The translations under genes were made by a program, and so were the position numbers. A stretch of DNA of 59,911 nucleotides, taken from the NCBI GenBank assembly GCA_028714635.1, contig JAQTLZ010000005.1, positions 1-59,911 of the forward strand. The letters run 5' to 3'. Below, piece by piece: positions 27,919 to 28,770 of this stretch (its first letter is position 1; every line of letters starts with the position of its first letter). Under the pieces are notes generated by a model that did not search any database, was not told the DNA's origin, and worked only from the letters and a program-made list of their open reading frames with translations. The stretch comes from Minisyncoccota bacterium (lineage in GTDB: Bacteria; Patescibacteriota; Minisyncoccia; Phycocordibacterales; JAQTLZ01).

Positions 27919-28554
27919 TTATTTTGTTTTTTCTTCTTTTGCGAGCATTTCCGGCCCACAGACAACATCTCCCACCATCGCAATTTTCTCTTCGATCTTT
28001 TTTGCAGAAAAAGCGAAGGCCAGAGCATCTCCCATATGCGGGAACGGGCCGTCCTTCTGTTTCATTCCATCTATAAGAGAGACGTGCTCAAAGCCAGGTT
28101 CAAAAGCGATTTTCATAAGTGTTGGACGGTGGACCATAAGACAGCCGAGACCAAGCGCTCCCACTTCAGCAGTACCCTTTTCGGGTTTCGTAAAAAATTC
28201 AAATCGTCCTTCCTTGTTTTCGGAAAGTGTGCTCCAGACGACTGCGCCAGAACTTTGATACCACCCTCCCATGATTTCTTTGCCTTCTTTTAAGAATTTT
28301 TCGATAGAGCCCTTTGGCAAATATACAGAATCGTCAAGAAAAAGAACCCACTCAGCAGGAGAAGCGAGCGCCATCGAGCGCAACACATTTTTATTTGTGG
28401 TCATGTTGATGATGGCACTTCGATCATCATTCGTAGCGGAAGATTTTGAACCGTAGGAAATAATAGCGATATTTTTCGGATCCTCTTTCACCATATGCAT
28501 GAGATGGTCGGATTGTTTTATCCCCGATACCGATACTGCAATAAGCACTTTCAT
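27919..28554 (-). CDS. glycosyltransferase-like paralog
   Basis: Shares AEW..(F/L)(I/L)D..V..P, MGGWY, GLGC.M.HR and F.PG blocks with 27297-27914. True start is MKVLIAV at 28554; the MPFFTNR extension comes from a repeat element. Confidence 0.6.
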   Translation of the reverse strand: MKVLIAVSVSGIKQSDHLMHMVKEDPKNIAIISYGSKSSATNDDRSAIINMTTNKNVLRSMALASPAEWVLFLDDSVYLPKGSIEKFLKEGKEIMGGWYQSSGAVVWSTLSENKEGRFEFFTKPEKGTAEVGALGLGCLMVHRPTLMKIAFEPGFEHVSLIDGMKQKDGPFPHMGDALAFAFSAKKIEEKIAMVGDVVCGPEMLAKEEKTK

Positions 28555-28686
28555 CCGGTTAGTGAAAAATGGCATCGCTCCCTTGGAGCAAGTATGCGAT
28601 TTCTATATTATGTATTGATAATTCCGACTTTTTCATATTTATTGAAAAAATTCTTGTTTCGCTCCAATGCCATTTTCTACTACGGG
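28555..28686 (-). mobile_element. hairpin-ended element copy A (132 bp, no ORF), abutting the ATG of the GT-like gene
   Basis: Gene-strand ends are CCCGTAGTAGAAAATGGCAT ... ATGCCATTTTTCACTAACCGG. Flanked by ATGAA on both sides (28550-28554 and 28688-28692). Confidence 0.75.
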
Positions 28687-28770
28687 ATTCATCACCAATA
28701 GTTAATCACAAAAAGATGTGGCTTCCAAGAAGGATTTATTGTGTAGTGCTCCCGCCCCGAGGAAAAGAGA

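Follow-up and report, generated by a model that had tools for sequence, protein, structure and literature searches.

The window analysed here is a stretch of 59,911 nt from a Minisyncoccota bacterium (GCA_028714635.1, contig JAQTLZ010000005.1, positions 1-59,911, forward strand), and it contains five related elements, copies A to E, bounded by terminal inverted repeats (TIRs). Copies A to D each abut the ATG of a minus-strand gene, and the 5-7 nt that include this ATG are repeated at the far end of the element. We conclude, with very little doubt, that the elements are mobile and duplicate start codons on insertion. The evidence is observed insertion, duplication that depends on the site, empty sites, repeated independent insertion, a fixed orientation and a strong restriction to true starts. 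We further consider it probable that the elements make up a foldback DNA transposon family with a single gene, for a GIY-YIG nuclease related to the Ssn family, and with derivatives that lack an open reading frame (ORF), and that they move by the mechanism proposed in the Discussion.

Five related elements in the window

A scan of the whole window with the regular expression CCNGT(T)AG...CT(A)ACNGG, requiring complementary arms, recovered five elements only. These are the five that an earlier note on this DNA had listed, and reading of the regions gave the same coordinates. A repeat finder independently recovered the right arm common to the elements as family D12, and the two arms of copy C as I7. 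The elements, their duplications and their nuclease ORFs are as follows:

28555-28686 (core, 132 nt) or 28555..28687 with the terminal A (133 nt), minus strand: copy A, ORF-less
28550..28554, minus strand: gene-side duplication of copy A, TTCAT (ATGAA in gene orientation), which contains the start codon for the 211-aa gene at 27919-28554
28688..28692, minus strand: upstream duplication of copy A, ATGAA, which opens a 17-codon ORF ending inside the element
45610..45739, minus strand: copy B, 130 nt, ORF-less, between tpiA and pgk
45603..45609, minus strand: gene-side duplication of copy B, ACTTCAT (ATGAAGT), the true pgk start codon
45740..45746, minus strand: upstream duplication of copy B, ATGAAGT, 3 nt past the tpiA stop codon TAA (45750-45752)
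52515-52823 (core, 309 nt) or 52515..52824 with the terminal A (310 nt), minus strand: copy C, nuclease-bearing
52529..52798, minus strand: GIY-YIG ORF of copy C, 89 aa (PF01541, E 9.6e-18), its stop 14 nt before the pilB ATG
52510..52514, minus strand: gene-side duplication of copy C, TGCAT (ATGCA), the pilB start codon
52825..52829, minus strand: upstream duplication of copy C, ATGCA, which opens a 7-codon ORF whose stop lies 7 nt before the nuclease ATG
31230-31506 (core, 277 nt) or 31230..31507 with the terminal A, minus strand: copy D, nuclease-bearing, of a second subfamily
31226..31486, minus strand: GIY-YIG ORF of copy D, 86 aa (PF01541, E 5.9e-17), its TGA stop overlapping the GATase ATG as ATGA
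31225..31229, minus strand: gene-side duplication of copy D, TTCAT (ATGAA), the start codon of the GATase-like gene at 30654-31229
31508..31512, minus strand: upstream duplication of copy D, ATGAA
52908..52973, minus strand (scanned core 52909-52972, 64 nt): copy E, a short hairpin form of 64-66 nt

Read on the plus strand, copies A to D have the form ...NNCAT-CC...GG(A)-NNCAT..., with ends CCGGTTAGTGAAAAATGGCAT...ATGCCATTTTCTACTACGGG(A) in copy A and CCCGTTAGAGATA...TATCTCTAACGGG(A) in copy D. The boundary between element and duplication is ambiguous by one base, the alternatives being TCC...GG with a 5-nt duplication ATGNN and the symmetric TCC...GGA with a 4-nt duplication TGNN. The nuclease ORF starts ~26 nt inside the left end in copies C and D. 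Copies A and B are mid-size ORF-less forms and copy E is a short one, and they have the outer 12-14 nt of the arms in common with C and D. Copy E is flanked by GCAAA at 52903-52907 and 52973-52977, with a one-base offset; there is no ATG in this repeat, and the copy is not at a gene start. A terminal stem forms on folding of all five elements (z-scores of -2.1 to -7.0 relative to shuffled sequences; copy E, -7.0), and in copies A to D this stem stands directly against the host ATG.

The coordinates, the position of four copies on the ATG of minus-strand genes, the far-end repeats (ATGAA, ATGAAGT, ATGCA and ATGAA on the gene strand) and the strong stem next to the initiation codon thus agree with the earlier note. 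What it described as hairpin ends are the TIRs of a single element and not two separate hairpins, and it had overlooked the nuclease genes of copies C and D.

The four hosts are unrelated genes: pgk, pilB, the GATase-like gene and one uncharacterised gene. The start of pgk is credible, positions 5-377 of the Pfam PGK profile corresponding to residues 9-359, as is that of the GATase-like gene, where profile position 2 corresponds to residue 5, and that of pilB, where residue 1 corresponds to the ATG of 79 orthologs. The start of the uncharacterised gene beside copy A is plausible, without confirmation by homology.

Elements adjoin start codons and duplicate them

We assembled a set of 112 elements by one uniform scan over the window and all retrieved loci (numbered L below), and the census covers these sequences rather than whole genomes. 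The finder recognises canonical cores only, so that divergent subfamilies are under-counted, and most loci were retrieved through the element itself, which biases the sample towards presence of an element but not towards its location. Starts were defined by ORF length, not annotation, and an element was scored as start-adjacent when the ATG of an ORF of at least 60 codons lay 0-3 nt from one of its ends. By this measure 84 of the 112 elements (75%) adjoin the ATG of a long ORF, compared with 2.6% of 20,000 random positions. When GTG and TTG are allowed as well, the proportion is 60/67 (90%) for ORF-less copies of 80-200 nt, 26/33 (79%) for GIY-bearing copies and 1/12 for copies shorter than 80 nt. 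Insertion on start codons, which had been suggested as a trait of the family from the window alone, is therefore a trait of the long and mid-size forms and not of short forms such as copy E.

Of 111 elements, 85 are flanked by a repeat of at least 4 nt, against 14.5% in a control in which left and right flanks were paired across different elements. For the class flanked by ATGNN...ATGNN, both variable bases are identical on the two flanks in 50 of 52 cases, against 32% between elements; hence the repeat is part of the target and not of the element, and its covariation with the local gene sequence marks it, as had been proposed, as a target-site duplication. Among 66 start-adjacent copies, 50 have perfect 5-nt duplications, and ~6 that our script scored as mismatched read as perfect 6-nt duplications. 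The same spacer arrangement is found in 50 of the 85 duplications of at least 4 nt, with a register that is constant within a subfamily, and the position of the ATG in the duplication differs by subfamily (ATGNN, NATG or ATGA). The long and mid-size forms prefer ATGRA as target, with TATG used in one subfamily; the fourth and fifth bases are GA or AA in 42 of 52 duplications, against 43% of gene starts in the window. Insertion is accompanied by duplication of 4-6 bp of the target, and in these forms the host start codon is rebuilt flush with the 3' end of the element and the host ORF is left intact. As to the upstream copy of the ATG, 8 of 10 changes in decayed pairs fall on the ATG itself, too few to conclude that it is constrained.

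Orientation is fixed relative to the host. The nuclease ORF and the host gene point the same way in each of 24 GIY-bearing copies at a start, with no opposite case, and ORF-less copies aligned in host orientation have internal features common to nearly all of them. At stem positions 9-10 from the CC end, almost every subfamily has a conserved non-Watson-Crick A.C followed by G.T (GTAGTAGAA opposite GTAGTGAAA), and the polarity of this mismatch pair relative to the host gene is the same in 60 of 79 copies (60:19).

Some loci carry tandem or back-to-back arrays, in which 0-5 nt separate a right end from the left end of the following element, sometimes with a common 4-nt flank (TTCG in L047). They are L044:~2465-2476, L047:2471-2810, L049:2380-2810, L116:5349-5533, L196:323-508 and L079:2879-2960.

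Empty sites and selectivity for true starts

The closest relatives of the window at the pgk junction are empty. The junctions read ...AAATAAttaATGAAGcca in L198 (87% identity), ...AAATAAaATGAAAtct in L199 and ...TTTAATGaaatct in L200, that is, an intact tpiA-TAA-nnn-ATGAAG-pgk with a single ATG, where the window has ...AAATAAtcaATGAAGT (element) ATGAAGTcta; the empty target sequence is ...TAATCAATGAAGTCT.... The relatives thus have a compact junction of the kind (tpiA-TAA-TCA-ATG-pgk) that removal of copy B had been predicted to restore. For pilB, 77 of 79 orthologs are empty, and the other two (L274 and L287) carry different elements flush with the ATG. Together with copy C, these represent at least three separate insertions at the pilB start codon, in three lineages. 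The 326 kb of pilB ortholog loci were picked regardless of any element, and the elements of L274 and L287 are the only ones in them. We conclude that comparison with orthologous loci, which the earlier note had proposed as a check, yields empty sites with a single ATG for both genes.

Among the unoccupied ATGRA sequences of element-bearing loci, 2695 lie within genes, 672 are intergenic without being starts and 205 are starts, so that harmless intergenic non-start ATGRA is 3.3x as common as ATGRA at starts. Nevertheless, occupied and duplicated ATGRA sites are found at 41 starts and only 2 non-starts. Purging of gene disruptions alone predicts ~23% at starts, which indicates an extra restriction to true starts. 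A -10 box lies 4-10 nt upstream, the signature of leaderless transcripts, in 39% of occupied starts compared with 21% of all starts (p = 0.004) and with 25% of ATGRA starts (p = 0.07). However, 16 of 63 occupied sites are operon-internal, as is that of pgk, and targeting of open promoters is therefore not the whole explanation.

Most short forms (59-74 nt), one 137-nt copy (L045) and one GIY-bearing copy (L006) lie in promoter hexamers and not at starts (L125:159-225, L169:1332-1377, L149:1665-1728, L045:1159-1295, L031:1525-1594, L006:2476-2789 and L193:2435-2508). ATTGA is duplicated inside TTGACT-17-TATAAT in L125 and inside TTGACA-17-TACACT in L169, and GTCAA(G), the reverse complement of TTGAC, in L149 and L045; other duplications are TATAA or GTTATAC in -10-like boxes. 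These duplications likewise regenerate the signal.

The family is widespread in, and probably specific to, Patescibacteria

At 77 genomic loci of nuclease homologs, most ORFs are bracketed by inverted repeats of the same kind. The ORF-bearing form is ~280-320 bp long, with a single gene for a bare GIY-YIG nuclease of 86-90 aa. ORF-less forms of 100-165 bp and of 59-74 bp have the same terminal 12-14 bp (YCCNGTAGT(A)GAA). There are several arm subfamilies (CCNGTAGTAGAA..., CCCGGAAGT..., CCCAGTAATACAACTTC... and CCCGTTAGAGAT...), between which both arms change together with complementarity kept, at a nuclease identity of 31-80%. A 17-mer from the arm of copies A and B retrieved the ORF-less form from many further metagenome-assembled genomes (MAGs) of Patescibacteria, the taxonomic labels being those deposited, and in this arm-seeded sample ORF-less copies outnumber ORF-bearing ones. 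We conclude that the family is widespread in, and probably specific to, the Patescibacteria (Candidate Phyla Radiation, CPR).

All 14 matches on viral contigs were chance 17-mers without a hairpin, and we rejected phage-borne spread on these grounds. The idea, prompted by a published study (PMC11270868), that GIY copies without an adjacent start might lie in rRNA genes was rejected, since none of 14 loci did.

The nuclease

We found more than 490 close homologs of the nuclease, of 81-104 aa, and nearly all of those with a named source are from Patescibacteria MAGs. Residues Y5, Y16, G18, R26, H30, E50 and E62 are invariant across subfamilies (24 sequences). This invariance shows selection on the enzyme and makes it likely to be active. 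There is no other ORF between the repeats, and no DDE, HUH, serine, tyrosine, DEDD or Cas1 transposase there. At L053:2501-2743 the GIY-YIG ORF of the element has an internal stop codon, and this is likely a decaying copy.

The best relatives of solved structure are UPF0213 BH0048 (1ZG2, E 1e-5) and an SLX1 homolog (7WME); the score with TIGR01453, the model for group I intron endonucleases, is 20-23 bits, far short of the cut-off of 56. The best homologs outside the CPR are encoded on plasmids of Rhizobium, Shinella and Azospirillum (33-41% identity), and each is flanked by 4-5 repeats with the published SRM pattern, for example CGTCA-TCCCAGGG...CCCTGGGA-TCCAC. Alignment to three such SRM-flanked homologs with hhalign gave 98% probability and E 3e-14 over a 69-residue core; the C-terminal ~20 residues of the CPR protein are unrelated to them. 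A profile of the CPR proteins scores 45-50 bits with Ssn-like proteins, 43 with the UPF0213 (1ZG2) core and 28.5 with SLX1. Judged by these profiles, the nuclease belongs to the Ssn/UPF0213/SLX1 branch and is related to the Ssn family.

On the Azospirillum lipoferum 4B plasmid AZO_p3 (L210:1379-1887), a 97-aa Ssn-like gene and four SRM hairpins lie between sufB and sufC, inside an Fe-S cluster operon that the cassette does not break.

Initiation context and gene calling

Shine-Dalgarno-like motifs precede 3 of 42 long ORFs in the window, so the earlier description of a genome lacking such sites is accurate to within these few. Many genes also have an extended -10 box (TGnTAnAAT) that ends 6-9 nt ahead of the ATG; most pilB orthologs are among them (L211-L290, upstream of position 1201). 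The near absence of Shine-Dalgarno-like motifs, together with extended -10 boxes close to the ATG, suggests that leaderless mRNAs are widespread in these Paceibacteria.

The 3' arm of ORF-less copies (ATGCCATTTTTCACTAACNGG; 28555-28575 and 45610-45630 in the window) contains an in-frame ATG 21 nt before the host ATG. As a result, ORF calling adds seven residues (MPFFTNR) to the hosts of both copy A and copy B. In an independent public assembly, Logan SRR22315509 (L305:1501-2640), pgk is likewise called as 379 aa instead of 372 aa.

RNA, promoter, guide and read-through tests

Mismatches on the sense strand show no excess of G-U over A-C (83 vs 103 and 44 vs 51), and selection of the stem as RNA is thus unsupported, although conservation at the DNA level would mask a weak signal. 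Rfam at gathering score gave zero matches in the window, and we rejected a known RNA family or ribozyme. The alignment of ORF-less copies has a recurring TCGAyA-17-tAAAAT pattern, but an outward promoter was not supported: scores from a generic sigma-70 model were 5.81 for sense, 5.54 for antisense and 5.41 for shuffled sequences, with no fixed position. Guide-target pairing of the IS200/IS605 type was also rejected, there being no covariation (the best p in 136 tests was 0.033).

Reading from the upstream ATG always meets a stop codon inside the element; the length of this ORF is not conserved, and relative to the host ATG it falls in frame 0, 1 or 2 with no preferred one. We therefore rejected in-frame read-through or recoding across the element. 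The exception to this irregularity is the subfamily of copy C, where the order is regular: a 7-codon ORF, a gap of 7 nt, the start codon of the nuclease and its stop, 14 nt before the host ATG.

Comparison with known systems

The available text of Chenal et al. (Nat Commun 2025, PMC11893778) describes SsnA of Neisseria as a 94-aa single-domain GIY-YIG nuclease, tested at residues Y6, Y17 and E64, which binds the NTS/SRM hairpin repeat only as single-stranded DNA and cuts a few nt upstream, being inactive on double-stranded DNA and RNA. The ssn gene is bracketed by repeats, an arrangement that its authors call like an insertion sequence (IS); they favour domestication and raise mobility only as a hypothesis (PMC11893778). 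The CPR nuclease is similarly a single domain of ~90 aa, with Y5, Y16 and E62 corresponding to Y6, Y17 and E64 of SsnA, and according to the same text ssn, too, is bracketed by inverted copies of a repeat dispersed in the genome. In addition, SRM stems start with TCCC and end with GGGA, as do the CPR termini (TCCC...GGGA). With respect to cd10448, the hhalign probability of 98% and the 45-50 bits of SRM-flanked homologs would fit membership, yet UPF0213 scores 43 bits and the C-terminus differs; the nuclease is a candidate member of this clade, as it is of a sister GIY-YIG family.

There are also clear differences. None of 109 CPR elements overlaps the SRM pattern HGTCWYN(0-2)YYVSBRHN(0-5)WNVSBRGN(0-2)RNCYNB, which had 10 matches in 1.34 Mb on both strands and, as a positive control, matches the canonical NTS. 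Each Ssn end is described as a self-contained 28-nt hairpin, whereas the CPR ends pair with each other, not within themselves, and hold the gene in the loop; SRM repeats are hairpins of 20-50 nt, and only the 59-74 nt ORF-less CPR forms look like a stand-alone hairpin. On the 5' side, Ssn repeats are flanked by a fixed CGTCA, a place taken in the CPR elements by the variable, duplicated target, and the C-terminal ~20 residues of the proteins are unrelated. The available text reports no target duplications, empty sites or start-codon targeting for Ssn/NTS, and its RefSeq-based survey reports no CPR members (PMC11893778).

MITEs (miniature transposable elements with inverted repeats) and IS elements, such as Correia/NEMIS and MITEAba12, resemble the CPR family in their TIRs, short duplications, ORF-less derivatives sharing the same ends, many copies and location next to genes. 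However, the CPR elements encode only a GIY-YIG protein and not a DDE, HUH or serine transposase, target the start codon in fixed orientation and vary in duplication length between 4 and 7 nt. IS200/IS605 and REP/RAYT (REPIN) systems share mobility or maintenance tied to hairpins, a small enzyme gene flanked by its repeats and short targets at the hairpin foot; but IS200/IS605 elements use an HUH Y1 transposase, make no duplication and have separate subterminal hairpins, and the CPR elements have no HUH ORF. Homing endonucleases (I-TevI and the Seg/Mob enzymes of T-even phages) are likewise selfish GIY-YIG genes beside conserved genes that are left undisrupted. They differ in having ~200-270 aa with a DNA-binding domain, against 86-89 aa for the CPR nucleases of the window, and in spreading to the same locus by double-strand-break repair without repeats or duplication, whereas the CPR elements disperse to unrelated genes. 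Finally, CPR rRNA genes carry non-intron insertions that encode a GIY-YIG protein (Tsurumaki et al., J Bacteriol 2024, PMC11270868). These share the host clade and a small GIY-YIG ORF in a short non-intron insertion, but they sit in rRNA genes (0/14 for the CPR element loci checked), and their ends are not described in the available text.

A full-text literature search found no description of a bacterial element that targets start codons, nor of these CPR elements, although absence there is not proof. This is consistent with the earlier statement that no such element has been described; a related system of a GIY-YIG nuclease and hairpin repeats has, however, been described for Ssn (PMC11893778).

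Other repeats in the window

Identical 21-nt palindromes (TGTCAAGGACAGTCCTTGACA) at 7114-7134 and 7790-7810 bracket a 209-aa ORF (7145-7774) on the plus strand, while nearly all other genes of this region lie on the minus strand; this may be a small cassette or an operator pair. A G-rich repeat (TTTGATTAGGGTTTAGGGTAAAGGGTTGAGGGTT) is present as 91% identical intergenic copies 6 kb apart (5716-5770 and 11731-11764). At 14372-15225, within a 1070-aa ORF (13166-16378), two 293-nt direct repeats are 99% identical and 561 nt apart, with weaker copies in the adjoining 862-aa ORF; we read them as recently duplicated domains in large surface-type proteins.

Discussion

In the mechanism that we propose, the enzyme of mobility would be the GIY-YIG nuclease. 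Like SsnA, to which we draw the analogy, it would recognise a hairpin, formed here when both ends snap back in DNA that is single-stranded or cruciform; cleavage would fall at the foot of the stem or just outside it. A staggered break in the target followed by repair synthesis would then give the duplication. Only ~26 nt precede the nuclease ATG, and because the gene has no promoter or leader of its own it would be expressed through the signals of the host gene; in the subfamily of the window, the upstream ATG copy, the 7-codon ORF, 7 nt, the nuclease ATG and a nuclease stop that lies 14 nt before the host ATG or overlaps it could form such a chain. ORF-less forms are presumably mobilised in trans. 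The restriction to true starts may reflect a target preference combined with a further filter, which could be selection for sites that express the nuclease without harm to the host, or recognition of the start-site context.

Several observations weigh against this mechanism. Copies within a genome are only 73-85% identical, without sign of a recent burst, and no filled-versus-empty polymorphism was found within one species: a metagenome scan of the pgk site gave no match, and in the sole other assembly with this pgk the site is also filled. The independent insertions at pilB do show repeated activity, on a longer time scale. The 5-nt target by itself does not account for the 41:2 preference for true starts. 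Duplication length (3-7 nt) and register vary between subfamilies, which is unusual for one defined staggered cut, and orientation is strongly biased in ORF-less copies too, which nuclease expression cannot explain. We know of no transposition chemistry for a GIY-YIG nuclease acting alone. Enzymes of this type hydrolyse DNA and do not rejoin it, and a host ligase or repair pathway must therefore be invoked.

A more specific idea, which we regard as tentative and rather doubtful, is that sub-lineages insert in -35 boxes (TTGAC), -10 boxes (TATAA) and start codons (ATGRA/TATG), always duplicating and so regenerating the signal, and that they are directed less by the 4-5 nt sequence in itself than by attack on transiently single-stranded or distorted DNA at active promoters. 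The start codon would fall in the open-complex bubble because many genes of these bacteria, which lack Shine-Dalgarno sites, would be leaderless.

If the hairpin modules were instead kept mainly for a role in host RNA, as a 5' stem stabiliser, a processing site (for instance for RNase III, with a near-leaderless mRNA as product) or a means of translation control, with the GIY-YIG gene domesticated or residual, the age of the copies would be expected together with the high conservation of the arms across distant CPR lineages. The fixed orientation of ORF-less copies, the scarcity of Shine-Dalgarno sites and the enrichment of leaderless-type promoters at occupied starts would fit as well, as would the domestication favoured by the Ssn authors in the available text (PMC11893778) and the GIY-YIG insertions in CPR rRNA genes (PMC11270868). 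We nevertheless consider this unlikely. Neither the mismatch counts nor Rfam gave a sign of a selected RNA, the idea of an internal promoter failed the scoring test, and a stable stem at the AUG is expected to hinder initiation; moreover, the hosts are unrelated genes, and presence is patchy among close relatives, the pgk site being empty at 87% identity and 77 of 79 pilB starts being unoccupied. We think it quite unlikely that a conventional transposase, encoded elsewhere, moves the elements in trans as ordinary MITEs, with the GIY-YIG gene a passenger or a homing-type coloniser of the loop. TIRs with short duplications are a hallmark of DDE-type transposition, ORF-less copies are in the majority in the arm-seeded sample, and GIY-YIG enzymes are not known to catalyse strand transfer. 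However, the nuclease is associated with these ends across at least four arm subfamilies and down to ~45% protein identity, the arms changing with the protein. The ORF also fills the element, leaving only ~26 nt upstream and ~15-35 nt downstream, with no other ORF between the repeats, and so looks like the element's own gene; its nearest characterised relatives, as the available text on Ssn describes them, are hairpin-repeat-specific nucleases bracketed by their own repeats.

It is also conceivable, though we judge it very improbable, that there is little or no target specificity and that purifying selection in very compact genomes alone produced the start pattern. The genomes are indeed gene-dense, the ATG takes different positions in the duplication in different subfamilies, and short forms lie at other sites. 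Against this, the register is constant within a subfamily and the bases after the ATG are far from those of window gene starts in general (42/52 vs 43%). Selection alone would also leave the harmless intergenic ATGRA sites in use, yet they are occupied in a ratio of 2:41 to starts, and insertion a few bases before the ATG, which should do no more harm, is not seen. We conclude that a foldback transposon family with an Ssn-related nuclease as its only gene remains the probable explanation.

What is new here is the evidence from duplications, empty sites and start codons; the combination of a small GIY-YIG nuclease with hairpin repeats has been known since 2025. Known safe-haven targets of mobile elements include attTn7, REP sequences, terminators and tRNA genes. 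The family would be the first among bacterial mobile elements shown to use start codons as a safe haven, the duplication rebuilding the ATG. The duplications, empty sites and repeated hits show that a small GIY-YIG nuclease of the Ssn type, together with its hairpin repeats, can act as a genuine transposable element, which makes the hypothesis of Ssn-type mobility directly testable and points to transposition without a classical transposase. If attack at promoters were to prove true, a single-strand-specific, Ssn-like nuclease would be the first transposition enzyme known to home on the start sites of both transcription and translation. Each subfamily is a matched pair of nuclease and hairpin, and may serve as a tool for single-stranded DNA, as proposed for Ssn in the available text (PMC11893778).

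In bacteria that lack Shine-Dalgarno sites, an essential gene such as pgk with a stable stem directly against its initiation codon is a natural experiment on translation initiation in the CPR, which may be leaderless, proceed by reinitiation or use processed transcripts. The elements also mislead gene callers, pgk being seven codons too long in two independent assemblies, and the annotation of small GIY-YIG genes in the CPR should be revised to mobile elements.

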